In this document: positions 15,515-49,646 of the stretch, piece after piece
Layout: each line of letters starts with the position of its first letter
Position numbering within the stretch: the first letter of the stretch is position 1
Translations under genes and position numbers: made by a program
The notes under the pieces: model-generated
The model's input: only the letters and a program-made list of their open reading frames with translations
The model's database searches: none
Told to the model about the DNA's origin: nothing
DNA from: a phage
Reading direction: 5' to 3' (one strand)
DNA: 64,000 nt
Assembly (NCBI GenBank): GCA_011884725.1
Contig: GCA_011884725.1_3919.1

Positions 15515-17881
15515 ATGCGCATGGTAAACGACCACGCAGAAGTGATTAAGAGTTCAACTTCTTTAGAGACGTCTCAAGCACAGATTACAATGACACCTGA
15601 AATGTTCAGCCTTTTGAGTTCTGGTGTATATACCTTTAAAGAAAGGGCAGTGATTCGTGAACTGTCATGTAACGCAGTAGATGCTCAGAAAGAAGCTGGA
15701 AAAGAGAACATCCCGTTCCATGTGCATTTACCTACTCGTTTTGAGCCTTACTTTGAAGTCCGTGATTTTGGAACTGGATTGACTCATGATAAAGTTATGA
15801 GTTTGTACCTAAACTACGGGGCTTCTACGAAGAATGACTCTAATGACTACATTGGTGCAATGGGTATCGGCTCAAAATCCCCATTTGCAATTGCTCAGTC
15901 ATTCACAGTGTCTAGCTATGTTGACGGTGTTGTTAATAAGTACTCTGTTTATCTTGAGAATGGTATCCCTCAAGTAACTAAGCTTACCACTAACCCAACA
16001 AAAGAGCCTAATGGTTTAGCTGTACGTGTAGCAGTTGCTGACCACCGTATCTCAAAGTTCTTTGAAGAAGCGGGTCACGTATACTCATACTTTGCTGTAA
16101 AACCAGAAAGTAATATCGAGTATGATGATGTATTAGCAGATATGAACGTCATTGCCCGTGAAGAAGGTGTTTACGATGCCATGATTCATAAGCAAAGCTG
16201 GCGTTCTAGTGGTAACAGGACAGAGTTTAATGTGGTGATGGGTAATATTGCCTATCCAGTGAACATGGAAGCATTACTTGGTGATGATTTCTTCAAAGTC
16301 TTGCCAGAGTTTTTCCGTAGGAGCGTAGACCTTGTAAACATCTACATGCCTATTGGTTCAGTTGCTATTGCAGCTTCTCGTGAAGCATTGCAGATGAATG
16401 ACACGACAAAAAATGTTATCATTGAGGCCACTAAAAAGATAACTGAAGCAATTACAAAGGATGTTATCAAGAAAGTTAATAGTCAACCTACACTTATGGA
16501 TGCTGCACAGGCTTATGCTGAGTTACGTTTGAACTCACGAGAGATGTTTAATGCTGTGTGTCCAAAGCTAGAGTGGGGAGGCGTTAAGCTTGATTCTCTG
16601 GAAGAAGAATTACTAAACATTCGTCGTGGAATTATCTACGCAGAAGACGGCTCAGTCATTTATGAACGTGACGGTAAAGGTAATATTAAGGTTGATAGGA
16701 ATGGGAACAATATCCCTAAAGTAGATTATCTTTATGACCCAGTTGCTTATGTCAAGTTCAACTCTTTAGAGAGTAAGATTCGTGCAACATCACTTTCCTA
16801 CACTCAAGAGGCAAGTATGTTCAATATCTTTGGCGCAATGCGTAAAAGCCAAATTGAACAGTTTTTGTTTGTTATAAATGACCGTCGAAATAAAAACGGT
16901 ACTGAGAAGACTGTAGGACGCAACCAAATCTTGCGTGGTGCATGTCGAGACTATGCCAGTGAATCAAGTCTGTTTCACAGATACAATGGTATTGTCTTTG
17001 TATTCTCTACAGAGAAAGAGCTAGACGACTTAATCAATCTGCACAAACTTGATAAAAGCTTGTTAAAGATTGTGAAGATGTCTGATAAGGAACATCATTA
17101 TCAGCGTAAAGAAGCTGTAAGAGGCGTTGTAAAACTTTGGAAAGCTGTTCCAGCAGAAGGTGTAGCTTCCTATAAAGAGGTTTCAGAGGACTTTGATACA
17201 ATTGAAGAACCTCAGCTTTACATTAAGGCAGTCGGTGACACAGTTGATGGTGAATGTTTTTGCTCATCTCCAGAAGATGTAGCTAAGTCAGTTGCTAATG
17301 TTACAGGTAAGACAGTCTATGTTTTCCGAAAAGCAAATTGGAAAAAGATACCAGAAGACTGGATTGAAGTAGATGAGAAACTCTTGAACGACAGCTTAAC
17401 TGATGTTCATTGGATTAATCATAACAGGTATATGACACGTATCTATATGAATGGTGTCCTCGACCTTACAAGCAGTTGGATTATTGCCAGAAACTTTACG
17501 TTCAATAACAGGAAGATTTCTCGTGGCTATTGTTATTCGCGGGATACAAACAAAACTATCTTCTTAGAAGGTAATGAAGATGCTGTAGAGGCAATGTTTG
17601 GTAAAATCCAATACGTTGCTGCACCTTTTGCATACACTTACACTATTAGTGTGTTGCAAGATTTAAAAAGATGTCTTGATAATGATACAAAGCTGTACAA
17701 GAAAATTAAGAAAGCTGGTGACCGTATGGTCATCAAGGTGACAAACTACCTTTCAAAAAGAAAACAAGAAAACTTCTTGCTTTCTCATTTAGATTGGAAT
17801 AAAGTGTCACCCATCGAAGTGAGTAAGTTCTTAGGCTTTGATGTGAAGTGTGTTCCAGAAGGGACTACAATTTACGATTAA
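15515..17881 (+). CDS. rIIA: rIIA protector-from-prophage-exclusion protein (GHKL ATPase fold)
   Basis: 788 aa; N-terminal RELxxNAxDA, DFGTGL, GxGxGSKSPF motifs and overall resemblance to T4 rIIA as recalled; directly upstream of rIIB. Confidence 0.8.
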   Translation: MRMVNDHAEVIKSSTSLETSQAQITMTPEMFSLLSSGVYTFKERAVIRELSCNAVDAQKEAGKENIPFHVHLPTRFEPYFEVRDFGTGLTHDKVMSLYLNYGASTKNDSNDYIGAMGIGSKSPFAIAQSFTVSSYVDGVVNKYSVYLENGIPQVTKLTTNPTKEPNGLAVRVAVADHRISKFFEEAGHVYSYFAVKPESNIEYDDVLADMNVIAREEGVYDAMIHKQSWRSSGNRTEFNVVMGNIAYPVNMEALLGDDFFKVLPEFFRRSVDLVNIYMPIGSVAIAASREALQMNDTTKNVIIEATKKITEAITKDVIKKVNSQPTLMDAAQAYAELRLNSREMFNAVCPKLEWGGVKLDSLEEELLNIRRGIIYAEDGSVIYERDGKGNIKVDRNGNNIPKVDYLYDPVAYVKFNSLESKIRATSLSYTQEASMFNIFGAMRKSQIEQFLFVINDRRNKNGTEKTVGRNQILRGACRDYASESSLFHRYNGIVFVFSTEKELDDLINLHKLDKSLLKIVKMSDKEHHYQRKEAVRGVVKLWKAVPAEGVASYKEVSEDFDTIEEPQLYIKAVGDTVDGECFCSSPEDVAKSVANVTGKTVYVFRKANWKKIPEDWIEVDEKLLNDSLTDVHWINHNRYMTRIYMNGVLDLTSSWIIARNFTFNNRKISRGYCYSRDTNKTIFLEGNEDAVEAMFGKIQYVAAPFAYTYTISVLQDLKRCLDNDTKLYKKIKKAGDRMVIKVTNYLSKRKQENFLLSHLDWNKVSPIEVSKFLGFDVKCVPEGTTIYD

Positions 17882-17886
17882 AGTGT

Positions 17887-17916
17887 TTGACAAGGGGCTT
17901 TGAAGCCCCTTAGAAT
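17887..17916 (+). promoter_or_regulatory. promoter-like TTGACA-18-TAGAAT with GGGGCTTTGAAGCCCC hairpin in the spacer, upstream of rIIB
   Basis: Direct read; hairpin may instead terminate rIIA transcripts. Confidence 0.35.
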
Positions 17917-29109: not shown

Positions 29110-29358
29110 ATGTCAACTATCCGCGTAACTGTTAATGCTTATGGCTGCCACCAACTTGATGCAAAATTCGATATCGGTGGAACAGATAACACCTTTGACC
29201 TTATCAAAATGCTGATTCAGCAGGTGATACCAGATTATAACCCTACTGATGACTTCTGGAAAGATGCCGTAAAAGAAGCCATAAACGAGGAATCTCACTA
29301 CCATTATTGGGGTGACTTGATTATCTCTCTGTACTACAGCAAACAAGGTTACAACTAA
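29110..29358 (+). CDS. hypothetical small protein (array gene 13)
   Basis: ORF track; degenerate type-A cassette upstream; followed by terminators 29369-29422. Confidence 0.5.
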   Translation: MSTIRVTVNAYGCHQLDAKFDIGGTDNTFDLIKMLIQQVIPDYNPTDDFWKDAVKEAINEESHYHYWGDLIISLYYSKQGYN

Positions 29359-29368
29359 TCGACGCAGC

Positions 29369-29422
29369 GGGGCTAAATAGCCCCAGATACCTGAAAAGCT
29401 CCTTCTCATAGGGGCTTTTTTA
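29369..29422 (+). terminator. tandem terminator hairpins (GGGGCT-AAAT-AGCCCC; AGCTCC...GGGGCT + TTTTTT) ending the rightward small-gene array
   Basis: Direct read. Confidence 0.55.
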
Positions 29423-30992
29423 CGTCTATAAAGAGACTCTATACAGTCCCTTTCCTTTCCTTCCTAGAATCTATCCCACTAATTCGATAGAGACTATCTC
29501 ATACCTTAAAAAGCAATAACTCTATAGTCTACTCTATAACCTCTTATCAAATCAACTTAAATATAAGCCCATAACCCGAAAGGGAAGGGCAACCACTAAA
29601 ACGCTCTATAAAGCTCTATAACAGCCTTATCAATCTAACTTAAGCAATCATATTAACCTACTCTAAAAAGCCCTTTATAGAGCTTCCCAGAGCCTTAAAA
29701 GAATCTTATAAGGGTGTAAGCTTTATTATCTCGTTAGCTATCTTGTGAACTACTAAAAAGGGCTTGTTAGTGTCTTAAAAGTATGTTATAGGGGCTATAA
29801 AGTTACTTCAAAGTTACGTAAAAGGGGCTATAAAGTTACGTAAATGCTAGCCCCCTTAACATTTTCTTAACAATTTCTTAACAATCCCTACATAGTTATG
29901 CTTTTAAGGCACTTGTTAGAGACTTGTTAGCCCCTTGTTAAATCTCTGTTAAGACCACGTAAAAGCCTTGTAAGAGTCTTTAGCATAGCCTTTAAAGCCT
30001 CTGTAAAGCCCTATAAAGAGGTGTCTGTATAGTTGGGGTGTAATTACTAGGAAGAGACTTAAAAGAGCTTACAAGGAGCTATAGAGAGCTTTTAAGAGGG
30101 CTATTTAGAGAATCACTAAGAGGGAAAGGGAACGATAAGAAAAGAGATAGTGACCATGTTAATAGCTTGTTAAAAAGATTAAACACTTGTTAGGAACTTG
30201 TTAATTATCCCTACAAAATAACTCTTTAAAATTAACTTGTTAGCTCTTGTTAGTCATCTGTTAAGATTCTGTAAAGCCTATGTATCAACTGTTAAGAAAC
30301 TGTTACACCCTTGTTAGTTCTGTTAAGAATCTGTTAAGACCTCTGAAGAGATGTTAAGAAGATGTGAGAACTGTTAAGGAATTGTTAATGATATTTTAAA
30401 ATTTTGCAAAGTACTTGTAAGGGAGTTGTTAAGGGCTACCAAGCAGATATACATCTTCTACAGATATTTTTCAGTCCCTTCAAAGACCCTAAAAAATGAC
30501 TTGATAGTCCTATTTTATAAAAATTTTAAAATTCTGAATAATTACCTATACAGTCTTTTAAAAATACAGGTAATAACAGGCTTATAAGATACCTTGTTAG
30601 TACCGTGTTAGACCTTGTGAGATAAGGTCTGTAAAGATATTCCTGTTAAGTTTGTTAAAACAGTCTATATAGAGGCTTAGTATTTCCTAGTGAACACCTA
30701 TAGAGGGTAACATAGCTAACCTAGAGATTAAGAGGTGTATAGGAGCTTCTAAGAGGGTGTAGAGAGATGGTTAAGGTGATTGTATAGGTTGTTAAGAAGG
30801 CTTGTTAGAAGAGTGTTTAGAAGGGCTATACAGAGGGGCTATTAAGACCACTAGATAGATACTAAGATACTATATAGTACTATATAACTATATAGAGAGT
30901 AAGATTAAGAAGGTTGTTAAGAAGGGTAGATATTTTATTCACATATGATGGTGACCCAGCGGTTGGGACAACCGATAAATTTTATAAAAATT
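29423..30992. repeat. ORF-free region densely packed with short degenerate repeats (CTATA(A/G)AG family in the left part; (C/T)TGTTA(A/G)G family in the right part)
   Basis: No ORF of 60 aa or more on any frame; about 30 copies of TTGTTAG/CTGTTAAG-like octamers and about 12 CTATAAAG-like copies counted by eye; bounded by convergent terminators. Confidence 0.75.
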
Positions 30993-31022
30993 AAAAAGCC
31001 CCCGATTAAGGAGGCTCTTAAG
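30993..31022 (-). terminator. minus-strand terminator-like hairpin GAGCCTCC-TTAATC-GGGGGCTT + TTTTT
   Basis: Reverse complement read; downstream of the last leftward gene. Confidence 0.45.
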
Positions 31023-31027
31023 ATATT

Positions 31028-31576
31028 TTAAATCAGTGTTTCCAGAACTGTTTTCAATGATGACTTGGTTGTCTGATAAAAATGAGTAAATCCATTGTTA
31101 TTATCGAATACCTGCATCATGATATCATCTCCCTTGATTGGGTACACTCGGATATCATAGTGAAAACCATTAAAGACACAAGAACCACTACAGAATGCTC
31201 TAAAGTCATCTACTGAGATATACTCTTCATGACCTGTGATTTTTATACAAACGCCTTTACTCGGTCTCTTAGGGTTGATATCTTCCATCACAGACATACT
31301 CTGTCCACCAAGAGATACCATAGTGACCACTTTACGGTTCTTCTGTTTAAAGTACATCTTAACTTTCTGCAAAGTGTCTTCATAGAATGGATAAGACCTT
31401 TCTACAAAGATTCCTTCAAGTGGCTCTTTACCATTTTCAACTTCTCGGTTATGCCGTACTGCAAAGATAATTTGTTCGAACCAGTCAAGATTTTCTTCGG
31501 AGAGTGCTTCCCGAACATCCTTCCAGTCAAGTACTAAGTAGTTACCTTCAACTTCTTTTAAGTTATCTTTTTCCAT
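31028..31576 (-). CDS. hypothetical protein
   Basis: ORF track frame; start set to internal ATG 31576 (GGTG 8 nt upstream), which avoids a 62 bp overlap; track start 31651 is also possible. Confidence 0.4.
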   Translation of the reverse strand: MEKDNLKEVEGNYLVLDWKDVREALSEENLDWFEQIIFAVRHNREVENGKEPLEGIFVERSYPFYEDTLQKVKMYFKQKNRKVVTMVSLGGQSMSVMEDINPKRPSKGVCIKITGHEEYISVDDFRAFCSGSCVFNGFHYDIRVYPIKGDDIMMQVFDNNNGFTHFYQTTKSSLKTVLETLI

Positions 31577-31589
31577 ATCTATCACACCA

Positions 31590-32054
31590 TTATCGTAAAA
31601 CTTGATATTCTGGTACTGCGAATTTATTACTATTGTTCTTGATGAGGTCATCCTCTGAAACTAAAAATGTAATCCCACATAAGTGTCTGTAACGACTATC
31701 ATACTCGAATATCTTAAACAGATATTTACCATCATGATAAACCTGTTGCACTTCACCTTCTGCAACAGTCTCGCCTGTAATAAAATTTTTTAGTTTATAC
31801 ACATTACCAACTTTAGGTACTGTTTTCATCTCAGGCTCTTTTAGTGCTACACCTATTTTTGCATCACCGAGTAAATGAGAACTCTCAAAAGCTACGTGTT
31901 TCATATAAGCTTCTGAGCATTCCCAAATAAAACAATGTACAAGAACCTTAGCAGCATGTCTTGAGCAGTTCAACTTATCACAAATTTCTGTGTACATCTC
32001 ATCTTTAGTAGAATTGTCAAGCATTGCTCTTTGCACTACTTCTTTAATTTTCAT
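31590..32054 (-). CDS. hypothetical protein
   Basis: ORF track. Confidence 0.45.
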   Translation of the reverse strand: MKIKEVVQRAMLDNSTKDEMYTEICDKLNCSRHAAKVLVHCFIWECSEAYMKHVAFESSHLLGDAKIGVALKEPEMKTVPKVGNVYKLKNFITGETVAEGEVQQVYHDGKYLFKIFEYDSRYRHLCGITFLVSEDDLIKNNSNKFAVPEYQVLR

Positions 32055-40938: not shown

Positions 40939-41015
40939 CTCTGTTTAGCTCAGCTTGGTAGAGCGTTCCGTTTGGGGCGGTAAGGCCGGAGGTTCAAGTC
41001 CTCCAACAGAGACCA
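40939..41015 (+). tRNA. tRNA-Pro (anticodon TGG)
   Basis: Acceptor CTCTGTT/AACAGAG, C1:G72, T-arm GGAGG-TTCAAGT-CCTCC, anticodon loop TTTGGGG, A73, encoded CCA. Confidence 0.75.
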
Positions 41016-41022
41016 AATTAAT

Positions 41023-41100
41023 GTTCCAGTAGACAAAATGGTAAAGTCACCACTCTTTCAAAGTGGATATCTGAGGGTTCAAATCCCTTCTGGAACGCCA
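41023..41100 (+). tRNA. tRNA-Glu (anticodon TTC)
   Basis: Acceptor GTTCCAG/CTGGAAC, anticodon stem CCACT/AGTGG loop CTTTCAA, T-loop TTCAAAT, G73, CCA. Confidence 0.75.
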
Positions 41101-41191
41101 GTTTTGACAGAAGACCAATTACAGCAAACTTAATCTTATTCATCTGAAGGTAAATCGGACAAAGAAGAGATTTGGTCTGGTCATTAAGAAT

Positions 41192-41268
41192 TGCGGGTAT
41201 AGAGAAAGGGCGTCTCACATGTCTCATTAGCATGGTATCGGCAGGTTCGACTCCTGCACCCGCCTCCA
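41192..41268 (+). tRNA. tRNA with CAT anticodon (Met or Ile2 type), atypical 5' region
   Basis: T-arm GCAGG-TTCGACT-CCTGC, 3' acceptor ACCCGCC, anticodon stem CATGT/GCATG loop CTCATTA; 5' acceptor has a 1:72 mismatch or an extra nt before the D-stem. Confidence 0.5.
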
Positions 41269-41352
41269 AATTTACAGAAGACCGTTTACAGCAAAATTGA
41301 ATGAAATTTTTAGCGGAAAAATTGAAAGATACGGTCTGGTAATACTAAACAT

Positions 41353-41426
41353 GGTTAGGAAGCACATAAGGTATGTGCGGTCGCCTGTTAAGCGAATGGC
41401 ACAGGGTTCGAATCCCTGACTAACCG
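41353..41426 (+). tRNA. tRNA-Asn (anticodon GTT)
   Basis: Acceptor GGTTAGG/ACTAACC, anticodon loop CTGTTAA, T-arm CAGGG-TTCGAAT-CCCTG, G73, no encoded CCA. Confidence 0.7.
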
Positions 41427-41438
41427 CAAAATTGAAAT

Positions 41439-41526
41439 GTGTCGTTATCCCGTAGATGGTAGCGGTGGGGACTGTAAATCCCTTGTCATTGAGACTCGGT
41501 AGGTTCGACTCCTACACGGCACACCA
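41439..41526 (+). tRNA. tRNA-Tyr (anticodon GTA), long variable arm
   Basis: 88 nt; acceptor GTGTCGT/ACGGCAC, anticodon loop CTGTAAA, T-arm GTAGG-TTCGACT-CCTAC, A73, CCA. Confidence 0.75.
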
Positions 41527-41531
41527 ATAAA

Positions 41532-41608
41532 GGCTATGTAGTTTAACTGGAGAAAATACTCCCCTGTCACGGGAGATGATGTGAGTTCAAGTCTCATCGT
41601 AGCCGCCA
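41532..41608 (+). tRNA. tRNA-Asp (anticodon GTC)
   Basis: Acceptor GGCTATG/CGTAGCC, anticodon stem CTCCC/GGGAG loop CTGTCAC, T-loop TTCAAGT, G73, CCA. Confidence 0.8.
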
Positions 41609-41837
41609 AATTATAATAAGTATTTCAAAATGATGTTTTGAGAGGGCTATTTAGCCCCTCCCTTAAAGAGTTCTTACGAGTATTCTTTAAAGGAGCAGAA
41701 GACCAAATACAGCAAGAATGTATGATATTTTCAAGCCAATCCAATTTTGAAAAAATTTAAAACTTGGTCTGGCTCAACAAATTTACAGAAGACCGTTTAC
41801 AGCAAAACTTAAACAATCTATTTCTCGGTAAAGAAAA

Positions 41838-41892
41838 GGCGAAGGTTCGATTCCTTCACTCGGCAGATGTCGAGTTGGTGTAATGGTAGCAC
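41838..41892 (+). pseudogene. tRNA remnant: 3'-half-like T-arm segment followed by 5'-half-like acceptor/D-arm segment, no intact cloverleaf
   Basis: GAAGG-TTCGATT-CCTTC-ACTCGGCA then GTCGAGTTGGTGTAATGGTAGCAC; no complementary acceptor partner found in correct order. Confidence 0.4.
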
Positions 41893-42065
41893 TTAAGATG
41901 ATAAACAACGGTCTGGTAATTATCTTTGTAGATAAGTTATTAAGCTTACCTGTGAGTATGCGACCACAAAGGGTGAAAGGGTAAATTCTAGATTTAAACC
42001 CAAAAAGGCACATCGCTACAGACCTTAAGCAAGTCTGGGTAGCTTATCTACAAAGATAATTTAAT

Positions 42066-42141
42066 GGAAGTGTAGCAGAATGGTGATGCGGCAGACTTTT
42101 AATCTGACAGGCGATGGGTTCGAATCCCTCCACTTCTACCA
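42066..42141 (+). tRNA. tRNA-Lys (anticodon TTT)
   Basis: Acceptor GGAAGTG/CACTTCT, anticodon loop CTTTTAA, T-loop TTCGAAT, A73, CCA; weak T-stem shared with the CTT Lys tRNA. Confidence 0.65.
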
Positions 42142-42145
42142 ATAT

Positions 42146-42222
42146 GGTTCAGTCGCAGATAAGGTAATGCAAGGGTCTCATAAGCCCTATGAATGTGGGT
42201 TCGATTCCCATCTGAACCTCCA
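42146..42222 (+). tRNA. tRNA-Met (anticodon CAT)
   Basis: Acceptor GGTTCAG/CTGAACC, anticodon stem AGGGT/GCCCT loop CTCATAA, T-arm GTGGG-TTCGATT-CCCAT, CCA. Confidence 0.75.
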
Positions 42223-42223
42223 A

Positions 42224-42299
42224 GCTGGTATAGTTAAGAAGGTTATAACACTCCCCTGATAAGGGAACATCGGTGGTTCGATTCCACCTACCAGTACCA
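42224..42299 (+). tRNA. tRNA-Ile (anticodon GAT)
   Basis: Acceptor GCTGGTA/TACCAGT, anticodon loop CTGATAA, T-arm GGTGG-TTCGATT-CCACC, A73, CCA. Confidence 0.7.
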
Positions 42300-42314
42300 A
42301 TTTCAATAAAGTTG

Positions 42315-42343
42315 TTGACATTGAGATGTGACTACTTTATAGT
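42315..42343 (+). promoter_or_regulatory. strong sigma70-like promoter TTGACA-17-TATAGT inside the tRNA cluster
   Basis: Direct read; followed by about 200 bp without ORF or tRNA before tRNA-Arg. Confidence 0.55.
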
Positions 42344-42545
42344 AACCTTAGTTTTCGTTGCGTAGCGTCTATTTTGCAAATTTAAAATAAATGCAAACGA
42401 CAATGTTTTTCTGGCAGTAGCTTGATAGGCTAAACACCAGTGAGGTCTTCCAATCCCTCATCAAAGAATTTGGCGTACTCGCCCACGGTATGATTAATAA
42501 GGTGGGCATCTTTAAGGGCTTTCTAAGAGAGTCTTTAAAGATAAT

Positions 42546-42622
42546 GCACCCTTAGTTCAATTGGATAGAGCAACGGTCTTCTAAATCGTTAGTTACAGGT
42601 TCGAATCCTGTAGGGTGTACCA
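42546..42622 (+). tRNA. tRNA-Arg (anticodon TCT)
   Basis: Acceptor GCACCCT/AGGGTGT, D-arm GTTCAATTGGATAGAGC, anticodon stem ACGGT/ATCGT loop CTTCTAA, T-loop TTCGAAT, A73, CCA. Confidence 0.8.
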
Positions 42623-42764
42623 AATAGTTAGCAGATTACTTAGACGGCCTTAGCGGGTCTTCCTGTAGGGAGGTGGTCTGTATCTCATGTTTTCCAGAAC
42701 ATGTAAATAATCTGAGAAGAAGCTTGACAGTGTTGAGATAACAGGGTAAGCTTCGAATTATAAT

Positions 42765-42847
42765 ATGGGACGATGTTAAGACTCTAAGGCATGAGCAACG
42801 GCCTCCAAAACCGTTTCAAAGGGGTTCAACTCCTCCGTCCCATGCCA
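42765..42847 (+). tRNA. tRNA-Trp (anticodon CCA) with enlarged D region
   Basis: Perfect acceptor ATGGGAC/GTCCCAT, anticodon stem ACGGC/ACCGT loop CTCCAAA, T-loop TTCAACT, G73, CCA; about 7 extra nt between acceptor and anticodon stem. Confidence 0.55.
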
Positions 42848-42860
42848 AAGTCTTATTAGG

Positions 42861-42948
42861 GGTAGGTAGCGGCTAATGGTAGCCAAACTGTCTTGAAAAC
42901 AGTTGCCACTGTAGAGATACGGTGAGGGTTCGACTCCTTTACTTACCG
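42861..42948 (+). tRNA. tRNA-Ser (anticodon TGA), long variable arm
   Basis: 88 nt; acceptor GGTAGGT/ACTTACC, anticodon stem ACTGT/ACAGT loop CTTGAAA, T-loop TTCGACT, G73. Confidence 0.7.
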
Positions 42949-43104
42949 CCTAATAAGATTTACTCCGTCCATGCTTGTTCGCATTGTCGGTTTATCCCTC
43001 GTGTATTGTCGTACACTGTCAAAGCACCTAGTAGGTGTCACGGAGAAGAGATAATATCAAGCTCTCCAAAGGTTCTAGTCACCGGATTAAACAAGACTAT
43101 GCAA

Positions 43105-43124
43105 AGACCTATTTAGGTCTTTTT
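43105..43124 (+). terminator. terminator-like hairpin AGACCT-ATTT-AGGTCT + TTTT inside tRNA cluster
   Basis: Direct read. Confidence 0.45.
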
Positions 43125-43204
43125 AGAGGGCTTCTAAGGTTATTAGTCGCTTGTTGTGGAACCTTGTTGCTTAGGTTCTTAGAAGTTCTCTAAAAAGATT
43201 TAAT

Positions 43205-43282
43205 GGGAGATTGACGGTAATTGGTAAACCTACCATCCTTAGAAGTTGGTGTTTGAGGGTTCGAATCCCTTGTCTCCTACCA
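43205..43282 (+). tRNA. tRNA with Leu-type anticodon TAG but short variable arm
   Basis: Acceptor GGGAGAT/GTCTCCT (two G-U pairs), D-loop AATTGGTAAA, anticodon loop CTTAGAA, T-arm GAGGG-TTCGAAT-CCCTT, A73, CCA. Confidence 0.5.
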
Positions 43283-43289
43283 AATTAAT

Positions 43290-43365
43290 GCAGGTGTAGC
43301 AAAATGGTTATGCGGCTGACTCTTAATCAGTAAGACGATGGGTTCAATTCCCTCCACCTGTACCA
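43290..43365 (+). tRNA. tRNA-Lys (anticodon CTT)
   Basis: Acceptor GCAGGTG/CACCTGT, anticodon stem GCTGA/TCAGT loop CTCTTAA, T-loop TTCAATT, A73, CCA. Confidence 0.65.
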
Positions 43366-43371
43366 AACATT

Positions 43372-43447
43372 GGGGATGTAGTTTACATGGTTAAAACATA
43401 AGTTTTGCAAACTTAAGTACAGGGTTCAATTCCCTGCTTCTCCACCA
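43372..43447 (+). tRNA. tRNA-Ala (anticodon TGC)
   Basis: G3:U70 pair in acceptor, anticodon stem TAAGT/ACTTA loop TTTGCAA, T-arm CAGGG-TTCAATT-CCCTG, A73, CCA. Confidence 0.7.
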
Positions 43448-43453
43448 ATTAGT

Positions 43454-43528
43454 GCATCCATAGTTTAAACGGGAAAATTACAGTCTTCCAAACTGAGGTT
43501 GAGGGTTCGATTCCCTCTGGATGCTCCA
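43454..43528 (+). tRNA. tRNA-Gly (anticodon TCC)
   Basis: Perfect acceptor GCATCCA/TGGATGC, anticodon loop CTTCCAA, T-arm GAGGG-TTCGATT-CCCTC, U73, CCA. Confidence 0.8.
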
Positions 43529-43534
43529 AACAAT

Positions 43535-43611
43535 GCTGCTTTCGTATAATTGGCTATTACACATCCCTTGTAAGGATGGAAATGCAGGTTCGAGTCCTGT
43601 GAGCAGCACCA
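43535..43611 (+). tRNA. tRNA-Thr (anticodon TGT)
   Basis: Acceptor GCTGCTT/GAGCAGC, anticodon stem CATCC/GGATG loop CTTGTAA, T-loop TTCGAGT, A73, CCA. Confidence 0.8.
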
Positions 43612-43707
43612 ATTCAGAGGTCAAGTGAAAGACCGCTTTGAGTCAACTGAAGACCGTAACAAATACCACGGAGTTGAGTTAGCGGCACAACTTCAGACCT
43701 CTTTCAT

Positions 43708-43782
43708 ACTCGCTTAGTTTATATGGTAAAACATCACCCTTACAAGATGAAGAAAAAGGTTCAAGTCCTTTAGTGAGTACCA
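43708..43782 (+). tRNA. tRNA-Val (anticodon TAC)
   Basis: Acceptor ACTCGCT/AGTGAGT, anticodon loop CTTACAA, T-arm AAAGG-TTCAAGT-CCTTT, A73, CCA. Confidence 0.65.
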
Positions 43783-43783
43783 T

Positions 43784-43861
43784 GTTCCAGTATCCCAATT
43801 GGCAGAGGATGCAAGCTCAAACCTTGTATTAGTGACGGTTCGAATCCGTCTTGGAACACCA
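43784..43861 (+). tRNA. tRNA with Leu-type anticodon CAA but short variable arm
   Basis: Acceptor GTTCCAG/TTGGAAC, D-loop AATTGGCAGAGGA, anticodon stem GCAAG/CTTGT loop CTCAAAC, T-arm GACGG-TTCGAAT-CCGTC, A73, CCA. Confidence 0.55.
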
Positions 43862-43866
43862 ATTTT

Positions 43867-43942
43867 GCAGGATTAGTTCAAATGGAAAGAGCAACAGTCT
43901 ACGAAGCTGTTAATAGGGGTTCGAATCCCTTATCCTGCGCCA
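43867..43942 (+). tRNA. tRNA-Arg (anticodon ACG)
   Basis: Perfect acceptor GCAGGAT/ATCCTGC, anticodon stem ACAGT/GCTGT loop CTACGAA, T-loop TTCGAAT, G73, CCA. Confidence 0.8.
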
Positions 43943-43959
43943 GATAAAAAGGTGATACT

Positions 43960-44202
43960 ATGCAAACATTAACAGTAGTTGAACATGAAAACTGTGAGAG
44001 TATTGAGTTTGTCAGGGTCATTGGTGTTGAACACCACATTTTCTTAAAAGTGGGATACTTATGTGACCCCGCTAGAGTAGAAAGATTTATACGTGATTGT
44101 TTTGGTGGTAGACATCTGAAGAGTGTTATTTTTGAGACAGTTTTACCAGAAGGTTTAGAAACGAATAATAACATTTACCTCCTTACGAGGATTAGACAAT
44201 GA
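43960..44202 (+). CDS. hypothetical protein (inside tRNA cluster)
   Basis: ORF track; AAAGGTGA upstream. Confidence 0.5.
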   Translation: MQTLTVVEHENCESIEFVRVIGVEHHIFLKVGYLCDPARVERFIRDCFGGRHLKSVIFETVLPEGLETNNNIYLLTRIRQ

Positions 44203-44756
44203 GATACTTAAAGTATGCTTCATGGATTTTCTTAGCTTTGTTAGAGCCATTTGCAGCAATCTTAGCAGTTATCTTAGCACCTTTTGTAGTTCCATTCTAC
44301 AGTGAGAAGAAAGGACACTTACCTTTCGGGTTCAGATGGATGGAGACATATGACAACCCAATTGATGGTGATGAAGGTCACGTTAAAAGATGGGCTAATA
44401 TTAGATGGATTGGTAAACTAGGTGTCTACATGCAAAGAGTCGGATGGCTCTGGAGAAACAAAGCTTATAACTTCTCTTACCATGTATTAGGAAGAGATGT
44501 AAGAGATGTTACTAAGTGGAAAGGTAATATCAACGTAAGTTCTAACCCTGAAGATAATCAGACTGGTTATCTCCTAATGTGGAACAGTAATGCTTGGGGA
44601 TTATTCGCTTTTATCCCATCAATTAAAGTCTTCGGTAAACAGTTTTACTGGAGAATTTATGTTGGATGGAAACTTAAAAGTGTTGTCCCAGAAGAAAGAG
44701 CATTCTCAAGGGAAAGAGTTATGTTGGCATTCTTTATTCATCCACTGAGAAAGTAA
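44199..44756 (+). CDS. hypothetical membrane protein (inside tRNA cluster)
   Basis: ORF track; N-terminal hydrophobic segment WIFLALLEPFAAILAVILAPFVVPF; Trp-rich. Confidence 0.5.
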   Translation: MRYLKYASWIFLALLEPFAAILAVILAPFVVPFYSEKKGHLPFGFRWMETYDNPIDGDEGHVKRWANIRWIGKLGVYMQRVGWLWRNKAYNFSYHVLGRDVRDVTKWKGNINVSSNPEDNQTGYLLMWNSNAWGLFAFIPSIKVFGKQFYWRIYVGWKLKSVVPEERAFSRERVMLAFFIHPLRK

Positions 44757-44764
44757 AGATTTAA

Positions 44765-44840
44765 AGGGGATTAGTTTACAAGGTTAAAACCTCGGTCTTT
44801 GAAATCGAAGAAGTTGGTTCAATTCCAACATCCCCCGCCA
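44765..44840 (+). tRNA. tRNA-Gln (anticodon TTG)
   Basis: Anticodon stem TCGGT/ATCGA loop CTTTGAA, T-arm GTTGG-TTCAATT-CCAAC, unpaired 1:72 and G73, CCA. Confidence 0.7.
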
Positions 44841-44842
44841 AT

Positions 44843-44921
44843 GCTCCATTACTCCAATTGGCAGAGAGGCCAGACTTAAAATCTGTGTTATGTATCGGTT
44901 CGAATCCGATATGGAGTACCA
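44843..44921 (+). tRNA. tRNA with Leu-type anticodon TAA but short variable arm
   Basis: Acceptor GCTCCAT/ATGGAGT, D-loop AATTGGCAGAGAG (paralogous to the CAA tRNA), anticodon loop CTTAAAA, T-arm ATCGG-TTCGAAT-CCGAT, A73, CCA. Confidence 0.55.
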
Positions 44922-44926
44922 AATTT

Positions 44927-45002
44927 AGCGGTATAGCATAACTGGCAATGCAGCAGTCTCTGAAGCTGTCCTATTAAGGTTCAAATCCTTATGCCGCTGC
45001 CA
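44927..45002 (+). tRNA. tRNA-Gln (anticodon CTG)
   Basis: Acceptor AGCGGTA/TGCCGCT, anticodon stem GCAGT/GCTGT loop CTCTGAA, T-arm TAAGG-TTCAAAT-CCTTA, G73, CCA. Confidence 0.7.
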
Positions 45003-45033
45003 CTTCTAAGGATTCTTACGAGAGTCCTTAAAT

Positions 45034-45109
45034 GTGGCCTTATCATAAATGGTAATGACCCATGCTGTGAACATGGTCTATACGGGTTCAAATCCCGTAG
45101 GTCACCCCA
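45034..45109 (+). tRNA. tRNA-His (anticodon GTG)
   Basis: Acceptor GTGGCCT/AGGTCAC, perfect anticodon stem CCATG/CATGG loop CTGTGAA, T-loop TTCAAAT, C73, CCA. Confidence 0.8.
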
Positions 45110-45114
45110 ATTTA

Positions 45115-45191
45115 TAGTCCAAGTAGCTTATATGGTTAAAGCGCGTGTCTGAAAAACATGAGAAGAGGGTTCAAATCCCACTGGACTACCA
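45115..45191 (+). tRNA. tRNA-Phe (anticodon GAA)
   Basis: Acceptor TAGTCCA/TGGACTA, anticodon stem CGTGT/ACATG loop CTGAAAA, T-loop TTCAAAT; exact 3' end ambiguous by 2 nt. Confidence 0.65.
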
Positions 45192-45207
45192 ATTTCAAAG
45201 GTGCTTA

Positions 45208-45942
45208 ATGAAAGAGATGACAGAACAAGGTAAGGAGATTTTCAATCTCTTAAAAACCGGTAAAGGGTTTTCTAACCCCCTTATTACTGGTGCAGCAGTT
45301 CTCGGTGGAACCGTAGCTGCCTCTACATCACTTGTAAGCTCTATTAGCTCTGTATCAGACCCTACAGTAAAGGATAAGCTTGTTGCTGCTGGACTTACAA
45401 CAGTTCTGCTTAACAGCTTTACCACGAGTCTGACAAGCACTACATCAACTACCAAAACACTAACAGATTACGGTCAAAAGTCCATTGATGAGTTTTCATC
45501 ACGTATGCAGGTAGCAAAAGGTTACTCTAATGTTATGGGTGCAGCAGGTGAACAAGTTGGCTGTACACCATTTAGTGGTATTATGGGTGTTGCTACAGAG
45601 TATGGTCAAAAAACTATTGATACGATTAACAGTGTACTAGATAGTGTTAATGGTGTGTTAAGTGACTTACAAGATGCTATTGACAAAGGTCTTGATACTA
45701 TTTCTGATTTAGCTGAGCAAGCTGTTAGTAAGATTAATGAAGGTATTTCAAAAATTACAGCTTATGCAGATGAAGTTGTGCAGATGATTGAAGAAGAAGC
45801 TGCTCTTATTGCAGAGTACCTTAAAACGAATATCAATGGGTTCTTAGCAGGTATCTTACCAGACTGGTTTGATGATGCTTGTAAAACTGGTGTAATTGAC
45901 ACTATTGCAACACCAGAAATGAAGAACGCATTACAGAAATAA
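45208..45942 (+). CDS. hypothetical Ser/Thr-rich protein
   Basis: Start set to ATG 45208 (track ORF start 45145 lies inside the tRNA-Phe gene); stop 45940-45942 sits 2 nt before a tRNA. Confidence 0.45.
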   Translation: MKEMTEQGKEIFNLLKTGKGFSNPLITGAAVLGGTVAASTSLVSSISSVSDPTVKDKLVAAGLTTVLLNSFTTSLTSTTSTTKTLTDYGQKSIDEFSSRMQVAKGYSNVMGAAGEQVGCTPFSGIMGVATEYGQKTIDTINSVLDSVNGVLSDLQDAIDKGLDTISDLAEQAVSKINEGISKITAYADEVVQMIEEEAALIAEYLKTNINGFLAGILPDWFDDACKTGVIDTIATPEMKNALQK

Positions 45943-45944
45943 AT

Positions 45945-46037
45945 GGAAGATTAACCCTAAAAGGTAAGGGAGCAGTTTGCTAAACTGCCAGTAGCTGAGA
46001 AATCGGTGTACCAGTTCAAGTCTGGTATCTTCCTCCA
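45945..46037 (+). tRNA. tRNA-Ser (anticodon GCT), long variable arm
   Basis: 93 nt; perfect acceptor GGAAGAT/ATCTTCC, perfect anticodon stem GCAGT/ACTGC loop TTGCTAA, T-arm ACCAG-TTCAAGT-CTGGT, CCA. Confidence 0.7.
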
Positions 46038-46041
46038 ATTT

Positions 46042-46117
46042 GAATCCGTGACAGAAACGGCTATGTGCCTGTCTGCAAAACAGGTTTATAAGGGTTCGAG
46101 TCCCTTCGGATTCTCCA
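46042..46117 (+). tRNA. tRNA-Cys (anticodon GCA)
   Basis: Perfect acceptor GAATCCG/CGGATTC, perfect anticodon stem CCTGT/ACAGG loop CTGCAAA, T-arm AAGGG-TTCGAGT-CCCTT, U73, CCA. Confidence 0.8.
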
Positions 46118-46339: not shown

Positions 46340-46540
46340 ATGAGCGAGACCGTTTATAAAGAACTTTATGAAGCTAATAAAAAGCTAGAATTTATGCAGA
46401 ATACTATCATGGCAATTGCAGACAGATTGTCTGTAGCAACAGGTATTGATATTAAAGAAGCATCTATGGATGCACTTCTTGATGCTGTTGATGCAAAGTT
46501 CGAAGTTAAGAAAGAAGAGACTGCTACAGACTCTGAATAA
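46340..46540 (+). CDS. hypothetical small acidic protein upstream of terminase
   Basis: ORF track; GGAGAA upstream. Confidence 0.45.
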   Translation: MSETVYKELYEANKKLEFMQNTIMAIADRLSVATGIDIKEASMDALLDAVDAKFEVKKEETATDSE

Positions 46541-46561
46541 TTCTATTTGCGGAGGTGCTTA

Positions 46562-48163
46562 ATGGACTTAAATGCTGTTAAGCAGAAGCGAGTGGAAGAT
46601 GTTAGGAAAGTCCTAGCTGGAGAGTTGGGGCTTTCTGATGAAGTAAAAGAAATTATTAAATCATTCGGTAAAGACCCCTCTAAATTCCTTCCAACTCAAA
46701 TTCTGACTTTATTAAGATACACACCAGACCAAGTTCGCCTTATCTTTAAATTGATGACTGATAAGAATTATGTAGCCCCTCAGCCGGGTTCTCAAGAGGT
46801 CTTTTTAAATACTAATGCTGACTTGGTTCTCTATGGTGGTGCTGCGGGTGCTGGTAAGACTGCTGCATTGTTAATGGACTCTTTAAGGTTTATTGATGAC
46901 CCTAATTATAATGCTGTATATTTCCGTCGAAATACAACACAGCTACAAGGTGGTTTGTGGCCTGCTGCAAAGAAACTATTTGGTAAGTTTGGTGGGGTTC
47001 CTCACGAGCAGAAGATGACTATCACATTCCCTTCTGGGGCAACTATCAAGTTTACCTATCTAGAGCTTGAAAAGCACGCTGAAGGTCATCAGGGTATTGA
47101 GTATTCAGCTATTTACTTTGACGAAGGTACTCACTTCTCTGCTTCACAGATTTCATACCTACAGACTCGTCTACGTTCTGGGGCTGAAGGTGATTCATAC
47201 ATGAAGATTTCTATGAACCCAGACAGAGACCACTTTATTTACGATTGGGTAGAACCATTCTTAGATGAAGAAGGTTACCCAGACCCTGAAAAGTGTGGTC
47301 GTATTCGTTGGTATGTAATGAATGATGGTGTTATGGTTTCTGATTGGGAGAGAGACAAGATTCTTGAAATGTTTCCTCTTGAGATTCCTCAAACATATAC
47401 ATTCATCTCTGGTACGATTGATGATAACCCAATTCTTGACTTCTTAGAACCTAAATATCGTGGTAAGTTGGAAAACAACACCCCTGTAAACGTTGCAAGA
47501 CTTCGTTTCGGTAACTGGAAGGCTCGTGCAGAAGGTTCAAACTATTGGCAAAGACAATGGTGTGAAATTGTTGATTCACTCCCAGAAGATGTATTCGATG
47601 TCAGAGCATGGGACTTAGCAGCAACTTTACCATCTGAGATTAACCCTAACCCAGACTGGACAGCAGGTGTTAAGATGGGTAAATCTAAAAAAGACGGTTG
47701 CTATTATATCATTGATGTAGTAAGATTTAGAGATAGACCCTCTGGAGTCGAAACACAAATTAATTTGACTGCTGAAAGTGACGGTAAGCGAACTGGTATT
47801 TTTATCCCTCAAGACCCAGGCGCTGCTGGTAAATCCTACGCAACATCCCTCATCAGGAAACTTGCCGAGAAAGGTTATCGAGCAAGAGCTAAACCAACAA
47901 ATAAAGACAAAGTTACCCGATTTGCGGGGTTTTCTGCTGCTTCTGAAGCTGGACTTGTAAAAGTCTTGAGAGGTAGTTGGAACGAAGCTTACTTTCAAGA
48001 ACTTGAAGGTTTTTGTGGTGATGGTAAAACTAAAGATGACCAAGTGGATGCTACCAGTGATGCTTTCAACAGTCTTAACGAAGTTAAATTATTCAAGCCA
48101 CCATCAATGGGTGCTCACACAGACTTAGTGAGAGGAAACCCATATGAGGGGCTTAGACGTTGA
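46562..48163 (+). CDS. terL: terminase large subunit
   Basis: ATG 46562 with GGAGG upstream (track start is a TTG); Walker A YGGAAGAGKT; size and position before the portal gene. Confidence 0.8.
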   Translation: MDLNAVKQKRVEDVRKVLAGELGLSDEVKEIIKSFGKDPSKFLPTQILTLLRYTPDQVRLIFKLMTDKNYVAPQPGSQEVFLNTNADLVLYGGAAGAGKTAALLMDSLRFIDDPNYNAVYFRRNTTQLQGGLWPAAKKLFGKFGGVPHEQKMTITFPSGATIKFTYLELEKHAEGHQGIEYSAIYFDEGTHFSASQISYLQTRLRSGAEGDSYMKISMNPDRDHFIYDWVEPFLDEEGYPDPEKCGRIRWYVMNDGVMVSDWERDKILEMFPLEIPQTYTFISGTIDDNPILDFLEPKYRGKLENNTPVNVARLRFGNWKARAEGSNYWQRQWCEIVDSLPEDVFDVRAWDLAATLPSEINPNPDWTAGVKMGKSKKDGCYYIIDVVRFRDRPSGVETQINLTAESDGKRTGIFIPQDPGAAGKSYATSLIRKLAEKGYRARAKPTNKDKVTRFAGFSAASEAGLVKVLRGSWNEAYFQELEGFCGDGKTKDDQVDATSDAFNSLNEVKLFKPPSMGAHTDLVRGNPYEGLRR

Positions 48164-48179
48164 TAGCTAGGTGAGAAGA

Positions 48180-49646
48180 ATGGCAGATATTACAGAAACA
48201 CAAGAAAGCTTACCACCATTTAGAATGGGTGAAGTAGGTTCTTTGGGTCTGAAGGTTAAGAATGGAAGAATCTATGAAGAACCTCGTCAGGCACTAAGGT
48301 TCCCTGAAAGTATTAAAACTTTCCAATTAATGATGCGTGACCCTGCTGTAGCAGCATCTGTAAATATTATTAAGATGTTTGTCAGAAAAGTCAACTGGAG
48401 ATTCGTACCTCCAAAGGGAAAAGAGCAAGACCCTAAAATGCTTGAAAGAGCAGACTTCTTTAATTCTTTAATGGATGACATGGAGCATGATTGGGCAGAT
48501 TTTATTAATTCTGTAATGTCATTCTGCACTTATGGGTTCTGTGTTAACGAGAAAGTTTATAAGAAGCGTCAGGGTAAAAAAGGAAAGTACCAGTCTAAAT
48601 TTGATGATGGTCTAATTGGATGGGCTAAATTACCAATCAGAAACCAATCAACACTTGATAAGTGGTATTTTGACGAAGACTTTAGAAAAGTTACAGGTGT
48701 TAGGCAGAATCTGAGAAATGTTTCACATATTGCTGGAGCAATTAATCTCGGAGAAAGACCACTAACAAGAAAACTTCCACGAGCTAAATTCATGCTGTTC
48801 AAGTATGACGATGAATATGGAAATCCAGAAGGTCGTTCACCATTACTTAATGCTTATGTACCGTGGAAGTATAAAGTACAGATTGAAGAGTATGAAGCTG
48901 TTGGTGTTTCAAGAGACTTGGTAGGTATGCCAAAGATTGGTTTACCACCAGATTATCTGGATGAAAATGCAGAACCTGAAAAGAAAGCTTTCGTACAATA
49001 CTGCAAAACTGTTGTCAACGATATGATTGCTAATGACAGAGCAGGTTTAATCTGGCCTAGATATATCGACCCAGATACTAAAGAGGATATTTTCGAGTTC
49101 TCATTAGTTTCTAGACAGGGTGCTAAAGCATACGATACAGGTTCTATTATTGACAGATACTCCAAGCAGATTATGATGGCATTTATGTCAGATGTTCTTG
49201 CTATGGGTCAGTCAAAATACGGTTCATTCTCTCTTGCAGATTCTAAGACAAGCTTATTAGCGATGTCAGTAGATATTCTGCTGAAGCAAATTAAGAACGT
49301 AATTAACCGTGACTTAGTTGCACAGACTTATGCTCTTAATATGTGGGATGATGAAGAACATGTACAAATCACATATGATGATATCGAAACTCCAGACCTT
49401 GAAGCAATTGGTTCTTATATTCAGAAGACTGTTGCAGTAGGTGCTTTGGAAGTTGACAAAGAACTATCTAACAAGCTTAGAGAGCATATTGGTCTTCCTC
49501 CTGCTGATGAGTCTCAGCCAGTATCTGAAAAGCTTTCTCCAAATAGCCAAAGCCGTTCAGGAGATGGTTATAAGACCGCTGGAGAAGGTACTGCAAAGAC
49601 ACCTTCAGCGAAAGACCCAAGCACAGCAAATAAGGCAAATAAATAA
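48180..49646 (+). CDS. portal protein
   Basis: About 490 aa directly after terL, with acidic C-terminus; assignment by position and size. Confidence 0.6.
   Translation: MADITETQESLPPFRMGEVGSLGLKVKNGRIYEEPRQALRFPESIKTFQLMMRDPAVAASVNIIKMFVRKVNWRFVPPKGKEQDPKMLERADFFNSLMDDMEHDWADFINSVMSFCTYGFCVNEKVYKKRQGKKGKYQSKFDDGLIGWAKLPIRNQSTLDKWYFDEDFRKVTGVRQNLRNVSHIAGAINLGERPLTRKLPRAKFMLFKYDDEYGNPEGRSPLLNAYVPWKYKVQIEEYEAVGVSRDLVGMPKIGLPPDYLDENAEPEKKAFVQYCKTVVNDMIANDRAGLIWPRYIDPDTKEDIFEFSLVSRQGAKAYDTGSIIDRYSKQIMMAFMSDVLAMGQSKYGSFSLADSKTSLLAMSVDILLKQIKNVINRDLVAQTYALNMWDDEEHVQITYDDIETPDLEAIGSYIQKTVAVGALEVDKELSNKLREHIGLPPADESQPVSEKLSPNSQSRSGDGYKTAGEGTAKTPSAKDPSTANKANK

Follow-up and report, generated by a model that had tools for sequence, protein, structure and literature searches.

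A repeat-filled non-coding region as the probable genome terminus of a Felix O1-like phage

In a 64,000-nucleotide stretch of phage DNA (GenBank assembly GCA_011884725.1, contig GCA_011884725.1_3919.1; hereafter the window), positions 29423-30992 form a gene-free region filled with short, degenerate repeats. We put at roughly 90% the probability that a Felix O1-like myovirus has its genome terminus (concatemer junction) here, in a module that holds the direct terminal repeat (DTR) of the packaged genome. The middle 591 bp, which an earlier note on this DNA did not recognise as a terminal repeat, would be the DTR itself, bounded by two inverted boxes and embedded in arrays of phased octamers. 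The region is not a new kind of element, and the DTR of these phages is already known; its detailed architecture and its conservation across the subfamily Ounavirinae appear undescribed.

Results

Genome ends of relatives map inside the region

Sequence matches of the region and its surroundings assigned the window to Felixounavirus. The region matched 257 phage records, 196 of them with at least 80% query cover at 80-93% identity, and it is 90-93% identical between the window and at least 196 Felixounavirus records. Exact terminal duplications, 100% identical, are present in five relatives: ZX4221 (591 bp), vB_EcoM_D4 (581 bp), ECP2307 (592 bp), NBSal004 (694 bp) and Ro111lw (613 bp). All five duplications begin with GCCCCCTTAACA (longer form GCCCCCTTAACATTTTC), which aligns to window position 29850, and finish with GTTAAGGGCTACC (longer form TGTTAAGGGCTACC), which aligns to 30440; the records of ZX4221, vB_EcoM_D4, ECP2307 and NBSal004 break at one shared base of the region used as query. 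Because the end boundaries of the relatives map to these two positions, the window would contain one DTR copy with two non-coding flanks, the coordinates being transferred by homology (Table 1). The window carries the DTR sequence as a single copy; packaged DNA of the relatives has one copy at each end. In the packaged linear genome, the gene left of the region is the last at the right end and the gene right of it the first at the left end; both terminal gene blocks are transcribed outward, each toward its own end, and are closed by terminators ahead of the non-coding terminal DNA.

Terminal repeats have been reported for several members of this group. PhageTerm analysis gives a DTR of 613 bp for vB_EcoM-Ro111lw (PMC6454146) and of 581 bp for vB_EcoM-Pr103Blw (PMC8303462), and assigns DTR ends to vB_EcoM_D4 (PMC11737134). 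For UAB_Phi87, the published work reports a 608-bp DTR from Bal31 digestion and run-off sequencing, Bal31-sensitive SpeI end fragments of 4322 and 2819 bp, and a large terminase subunit (TerL) that clusters with DTR-type terminases (PMC4837284). Short terminal repeats were inferred for Felix O1 itself (PMC3185647).

The UAB_Phi87 restriction data could be placed on the sequence. This genome gives six SpeI fragments, and the published ends (4322 + 2819 - 608 = 6533) fit only one of them, of 6568 bp, in which the region lies. The UAB_Phi87 boundary boxes lie 614 bp apart and predict end fragments of 2747 and 4435 bp, within about 3% of the published sizes. The GenBank record of this phage (JN225449) has 87,603 bp, shows no duplication of its ends and starts within the tRNA cluster instead of at the experimentally mapped ends; the paper gives 87,669 bp including DTRs (PMC4837284). 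The start of the record, at window position 44965, was considered as the physical left end and rejected, as there is no terminal duplication and the SpeI map places the ends in the repeat region.

A packaging (pac) site was one of the roles proposed for the region in the earlier note. The link to packaging stands, but a headful pac site does not, because independent isolates share the same fixed, non-permuted ends; the Bal31-sensitive end fragments are also discrete (PMC4837284). The region instead has the properties of a site-specific terminus of the T7 type, with unique ends (as seen in the relatives), an exact, non-permuted repeat at both ends, and a single copy with conserved boundaries in the window.

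Two inverted boxes bound the repeat

The region was compared across 17 genomes of the genera Felixounavirus, Mooglevirus and Suspvirus. Both boundary boxes are single-copy in all 17, and 28 IMG/VR contigs have one right box apiece; the AAGCAGATATACA part of the right box is retained even in Erwinia phage phiEa21-4. By alignment with the ends of the relatives, the left virion end would lie between 29849 and 29850 (TGCTA^GCCCCC) and the right virion end between 30440 and 30441. Reading inward from each 5' terminus, both ends start with (GGTA)GCCC(CC)TTAACA and continue with TTAACA units 11 bp apart. The two predicted cut sites lie in inverted copies of one box, each cut falling after TGCT(A/T) and before G, and the three TTAACA units at 29856..29884 mirror, in inverted orientation, those at the right edge of the DTR. 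This inverted arrangement accounts for the two YTGTTAR matches of the region that fall on the minus strand (29867-29884), and explains why the folded repeat pairs its own two edges.

The boxes lie 569-694 bp apart, a distance that shifts by about 11 bp at a time (569/570, 579/581, 591/592, 613/614, 625), and the number of units in the tandem array at 29912..29953 likewise differs between relatives in 11-bp steps. The arrays thus gain and lose whole units. Individual variants include NBSal004, whose 694-bp repeat is about 100 bp longer than most; 'heid', with one additional TTCTTAACAA unit at the left edge; and REP11, with insertions of about 18 and about 54 bp in the left flank.

Both motif families share one phased octamer frame

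The short repeats proved to be highly concentrated in the region. Nine of the 17 window matches to CTATARAG lie there, as do 26 of the 79 matches to YTGTTAR, the latter between 29764 and 30920 with 24 on the plus and 2 on the minus strand; dinucleotide shuffles of the region gave an expectation of about 1.0 +/- 1.0 per strand. A de novo expectation-maximisation search revealed that the two families vary a single frame of 8 bp, CT-N4-AG, whose interior is rich in A and T, and converged on a low-information, quasi-palindromic yCTtwwaAGr frame with no single sharp motif. The CTNNNNAG frame was found 64 times, as compared with 11.5 +/- 3.0 in the shuffles (maximum 22).

The autocorrelation maximum of the region falls at lag 11 (z 10.1), and harmonics appear at 21-22 and 31-33; only the 3-bp codon period was seen in coding controls. 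The 11-bp period is strongest in the middle third and is also present in both outer thirds, and the left flank taken alone gave z 3.2-3.4 at lag 10-11 and z 4.3 at lag 22. In the A/T-indicator spectrum the region has the highest peak of the window near 11 bp, moderately above the 99th percentile (13.2 vs 9.6). These counts, well in excess of shuffled controls, bear out the saturation with short repeats described in the earlier note. Its division of the region into CTATA(A/G)AG-like motifs on the left and TTGTTAG- or CTGTTAAG-like motifs on the right is correct, and the tandem periodicity of 8-12 bp that it had noticed is now set at 11 bp.

The whole module is conserved, cores most of all

Across the 17 genomes, TGTTA cores are 97.5% conserved, as compared with 85.0% for positions within 3 nt of a core and 87.4% for other positions, a core conservation that was reached in 0 of 2000 random placements. 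The TGTTA copy number per DTR stays between 18 and 23. Beyond the left boundary box, at least 16 of the 17 genomes agree over a 30-nt block in the main field (30197-30226) and over two blocks in the right flank (30575-30618 and 30659-30675); another conserved block, 29411-29425, overlaps the terminator of the rightward unit. The module is 70-86% identical to that of phiSUSP1, where the flanking protein is only 51.5% identical and the neighbouring coding DNA 47-84% identical. This pattern points to selection on the module as a whole, not on the cut sites alone.

Erwinia phage phiEa21-4 (Kolesnikvirus) gave no BLAST match to the region. Its syntenic gap (16472-17912) is nevertheless low in GC, has an 11-bp period (z 8.5) and contains TGTTAAG arrays, with TTAACA units toward the left edge of the predicted repeat, TGTTA toward the right, and recognisable boundary boxes 439 bp apart. 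In its left flank, the octamer CTTCTAA(A/G) replaces CTATAAAG. The same layout can hence be recognised, from sequence features, in Mooglevirus, Suspvirus and phiEa21-4.

The conservation bears on whether the repeats do anything at all. Were they slippage-generated filler without sequence-specific function, with only the cut sites mattering, one would expect the shifts of unit number in 11-bp steps and the 569-694 bp range of the DTR, which indicate active expansion and contraction. We give this explanation almost no credence: the cores are significantly better conserved than the spacers, copy number and orientation are held across three genera, the architecture recurs in a fourth with no BLAST-detectable similarity, and conservation of the region equals or exceeds that of the neighbouring genes.

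The region is non-coding and lies between convergent units

The longest open reading frame (ORF) within 29423-30992 encodes 53 aa (30426-30587, TTG start) and the longest stop-free run has 69 codons; nowhere else in the window is there so long a stretch free of open frames of 60 codons or more as 29464-30377 (914 bp). The region contains no ORF of 30 aa or longer that is kept across the 17 related genomes. It has 34.0% GC, and the window 38.9%. All annotated relatives show a gap of about 1.6 kb at the homologous place, with small rightward genes on one side and a leftward block on the other, and both flanking terminators are annotated at homologous positions in AYO145A, Moogle and Mordin. The absence of ORFs between convergent, terminated transcription units, as first described, is therefore confirmed, with no small ORF conserved in the 17 genomes and with terminators at 29396-29421 (plus strand) and 31019-30994 (minus strand). 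The alignment with related phages that had been proposed as a check further yielded the ends, the boundary boxes and the conserved cores.

Several GenBank records annotate small coding sequences (CDSs) inside the terminus module: 17660-17881 in phiEa21-4, Phi87_32-34 in UAB_Phi87, and four 'hypothetical protein' features in the LMP25/33/34 records. These are probably spurious, because none is conserved as an ORF across the relatives.

A further option raised at the outset was an untranslated RNA; a protein-sponge RNA with about 25 UGUUA on one strand would be one example. The strand asymmetry of the motif (24 plus, 2 minus) and the plus-strand terminator-like hairpin at 30960-30985 would suit such a transcript, and part of the field is rich in A-R-N-like triplets. 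The searches lent it no support. There was no Rfam match, and a scan to E 1 gave only a sub-threshold Phe-leader on the minus-strand terminator; a sigma-70 scan returned 10 promoter-like sites, none strong, against 7.6 +/- 2.9 expected; and folding z-scores of three sub-regions were only -1.5 to -1.9. Both flanking units terminate before the region, and the 11-bp period and inverted boundary boxes are properties of duplex DNA. We therefore regard an RNA product as very improbable. A conserved TTGATA/TTGACA...TAAAAT pair at 30500-30545 was considered as a promoter and rejected for its spacer of 19-20 bp. The hairpin at 30960-30985 would stop rightward transcription ahead of the antisense of the next gene; it sits at the far right of the region, within which no plus-strand promoter was found.

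Table 1. Features of the terminus module and of related genes in the window. DTR boundaries are transferred by homology.
Feature	Position	Strand	Remarks
Gene left of region	29110..29358	+	82 aa, PHROG 4559, function unknown; homologous CDS in relatives
Second hairpin, GGGGCTAAATAGCCCC	29369-29384		5' of the + strand terminator at 29396..29421
Intrinsic terminator, rightward unit	29396..29421	+	AAGCTCCT..AGGGGCTT stem, then T6; read from sequence
Left flank: right-end unique non-coding DNA	29422-29849		427 bp
Left-flank octamers, CTATAAAG / CTTAAAAG / CTTATAAG type	29422..29849	+	about 10-11 bp spacing
Left boundary box, TAGCCCCCTT	29848..29857	+	at least 16/17 genomes agree
Predicted DTR	29850..30440	+	591 bp; from terminal duplications of relatives
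Three TTAACA units	29856..29884	-	11 bp apart; orientation opposite to the rest of the arrays
Tandem array, CTTGTTAG, CTTGTTAG, CTTGTTAA, CTGTTAAG	29912..29953	+	four units, each spaced exactly 11 bp
Central cluster of quasi-palindromic CT-W4-AG octamers	29955..30110	+	CTTGTAAG, CTTTAAAG, CTGTAAAG, CTATAAAG, CTTAAAAG, CTTTTAAG
Main field of oriented YTGTTAR	30164..30432	+	14 copies, mostly 9-11 or 20-22 bp apart
Right boundary box, AGGGCTACC followed by AAGCAGATATACATC	30432..30455	+	block AGGGCTACCAAGCAGATATACATC; among the best conserved blocks
Right flank: left-end unique non-coding DNA	30441-30992	+	552 bp; follows the terminal repeat
Right-flank oriented YTGTTAR units	30594-30920	+
CTATATAG cluster	30857-30898		in right flank
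Terminator-like hairpin, CGGTTGGGACAACCG and T-rich tail	30960..30985	+	predicted; back to back with the - strand terminator
Intrinsic terminator, leftward unit	30994..31019	-	computed terminator scan
Gene right of region	31028..31651	-	207 aa, PHROG 4330, function unknown
Large terminase subunit (TerL)	46547..48163	+	PHROG 979, E 8e-234
Portal gene	48171-49646		after TerL

Genomic surroundings

An intergenic cassette of about 70 bp, detected as BLAST side-matches of 84-98% identity, is repeated before successive small plus-strand genes at about 23934, 25483, 26347, 27570, 28711 and 29039. These cassettes are probably repeated promoter/terminator units, the 57-bp and 39-bp direct repeats of the Felix O1 paper (PMC3185647). 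Between the leftward early-type block and the terminase gene is a cluster of 26 plus-strand tRNA genes (40939-46117), among them two for tRNA-Met and two each for Lys, Arg, Ser and Gln. Directly upstream of TerL, at the usual position of a small terminase, lies an ORF (46340-46540) for an acidic, helical protein of 66 aa; it had no Pfam, PDB or functional PHROG match, and phiEa21-4 has a 60-aa ORF (gp45) at the matching place. The tetranucleotide GATC does not occur in the window against about 205-224 expected, a full avoidance of this Dam/MboI/DpnII-type site; CCGG, CGCG and CTAG are also depleted.

Discussion

A packaging mechanism suggested by the architecture

The layout of the module suggests how the ends might be produced. 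During packaging from concatemers, TerL would recognise the two inverted TAGCCC(CC)TTAACA boxes together with the TTAACA units at the edges of the repeat, and would cut the strand that reads 5'-TGCT(A/T)^G. This strand is the top one at the left edge and the bottom one at the right edge, as would be expected of a site-specific enzyme on inverted sites and as 3'-end extension with strand displacement would require. The resulting nicks, staggered by 591 nt, would leave 3' ends from which a polymerase could extend through the repeat with strand displacement, so that each of two neighbouring genomes gains a full copy. The same scheme has been proposed for T7, in which 3'-end extension with strand displacement would duplicate the terminal repeat. 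We hold the chances of the staggered-nick step to be about even.

The arrays could serve the same process. Some 60 CT-N4-AG octamers, including about 25 oriented YTGTTAR, are phased at about 11 bp, or one helical turn, and would present their sites on a single side of the helix. An oligomer of a packaging protein, for instance a putative small terminase or an accessory protein that binds DNA, might assemble on them, perhaps together with host factors, and bend the DNA, thereby marking the junction and giving it polarity. Core conservation, constant copy number, strand polarity and one-turn spacing together would form the signature of a cooperative protein-binding platform. The binding-site array that the earlier note had offered as a candidate role thus fits the conservation of cores over spacers and the 11-bp phasing, and remains a candidate on these sequence grounds; the most likely role of such a platform would be in packaging, where it would be recognised by terminase and would recruit and orient the machinery, a step whose chances we put at about even. 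More tentatively, and with the odds somewhat against it, one can picture a module of 1.4-1.8 kb common to all Ounavirinae, in which about 60 phased octamers scaffold a small terminase-like protein, inverted boxes 0.45-0.7 kb apart direct the staggered nicks, and a co-evolving flank motif (CTATAAAG; CTTCTAAR in phiEa21-4) sets packaging specificity between genera.

The arrays, for example those in the flanks, might instead bind a protein unrelated to terminase, one that protects the ends, controls ejection, or is a recruited or titrated host nucleoid protein, leaving the DTR boundaries alone as the packaging signal. More than 1 kb of conserved arrays far exceeds what a cut site needs, the arrays fill roughly the first and last kilobase of the injected DNA, and the left-flank motif differs between genera (CTATAAAG vs CTTCTAAR), as expected for a co-evolving phage protein. 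The repeat-rich injection-stop region of T5 is a comparable case; Felix O1-like phages are not known to use two-step DNA transfer, a point against this alternative. Given that no candidate protein was found and that T7 shows such arrays to accompany terminal repeats, we consider this alternative unlikely.

A replication origin or priming zone, additional to or in place of a packaging platform, is distinctly unlikely. The units would then be iterons for a phage initiator or helicase loader, and oriented direct repeats at helical phasing in DNA of 34% GC do resemble iteron origins; T7 secondary origins, moreover, adjoin its terminal repeats. The region also lies at a turn of the cumulative GC skew, but this turn coincides with the switch in gene orientation and is for that reason uninformative. 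The iteron-type origin suggested in the earlier note found no positive support elsewhere. Consensus scans detected no IHF sites, one DnaA-like box that is not conserved in Mooglevirus, and nothing meaningful for Fis. No initiator gene is adjacent, both neighbours encoding small proteins of unknown function, and the primase/helicase and polymerase genes are distant according to the UAB_Phi87 annotation. The exact mapping of virion ends already explains the existence of the region.

Several points weigh against the terminus assignment or against parts of the model built on it. The ends were placed by homology from relatives that are 88-95% identical over the region, not from the present isolate. 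The published UAB_Phi87 end fragments of 2819 and 4322 bp differ from the predicted ones by 72 and 113 bp, and in the MET-P1-301 record the ends overlap over a shorter 544 bp with different boundaries, which probably arose in assembly. The two predicted cuts fall at offsets from the common TAGCCC core that differ by 4 nt. A small terminase or other DNA-binding protein was searched for and none was identified, and annotations of this phage group list no small terminase; the cutting chemistry, the staggered nicks and the role of the arrays are all features that we infer. Finally, the 1 kb of conserved flanks may hold functions beyond the packaging model.

Most public Felix O1-like genomes were deposited opened at an arbitrary point, and some annotate spurious small ORFs in this region. 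The boxes GCCCCCTTAACA and GTTAAGGGCTACC followed by AAGCAGATATACA offer a sequence rule for locating the true ends and the DTR in any Ounavirinae assembly, which would be useful for annotating therapeutic phages, for genome engineering and for rebooting. How terminases measure and duplicate exact terminal repeats is poorly understood outside T7; inverted boxes, phased arrays with conserved cores and natural 11-bp variants would make these phages a tractable second system, and the module could serve as bait for finding the small terminase of the Felix O1-like group.

Comparison with known systems

The DTRs reported for UAB_Phi87, Ro111lw, Pr103Blw and D4 are the same element as the present one, with identical boundary sequences, the same length class and a shared position between the homologues of Felix O1 ORF23 and ORF24. 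In their searchable text, the papers on these DTRs give the existence and length of the repeat only; the present region adds its position, the boxes and the arrays. No description of the DTR position, the inverted boxes, the 11-bp arrays or an Ounavirinae-wide conservation was found in the searchable literature.

Arrays of short oriented repeats are known from several other contexts. Iteron origins (lambda ori, P1, plasmids) likewise consist of oriented direct repeats in AT-rich non-coding DNA. Here, by contrast, no initiator gene adjoins the region, conserved DnaA or IHF sites are lacking, an unwinding element was not identified, and the genome ends map to the region. The R1 parC centromere contains ten 11-bp iterons bound by ParR, and shares with the present arrays the 11-bp tandem direct repeats on one face of the helix. 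This likeness is geometric only, since parC has another function and ParR/ParM-like genes are not present in this lytic phage. In packaging systems proper, namely the R sites of lambda cosB, pacL/pacR of SPP1 and the pac hexamers of P1, the cut is flanked by short-repeat arrays to which a DNA-bending oligomer of the small terminase binds. The arrays are comparable to those described here, but the ends in those systems are cohesive or headful, whereas here they are unique and carry an exact repeat.

The closest counterpart is the terminus of T7 and T3, whose short-repeat arrays are named SRL and SRR. In the T7 junction sequence we found 22 oriented copies of C[CAT]TAAAG, recurring with a period of 13 bp (z 8.4), in and around the 160-bp repeat. 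T7 differs from the present phage, a myovirus with another genome layout, in the length of its repeat (160 vs 591 bp), in its period (13 vs 11 bp) and in its motifs, and its left flank carries early promoters, whereas both flanks here are ends of transcription units. Shared by the two are a short, exact, non-permuted terminal repeat, a non-coding context, and many oriented, A/T-rich, AAAG-ending motifs that are regularly spaced inside and on both sides of the repeat. The likeness to T7 is one of architecture and not of homology.

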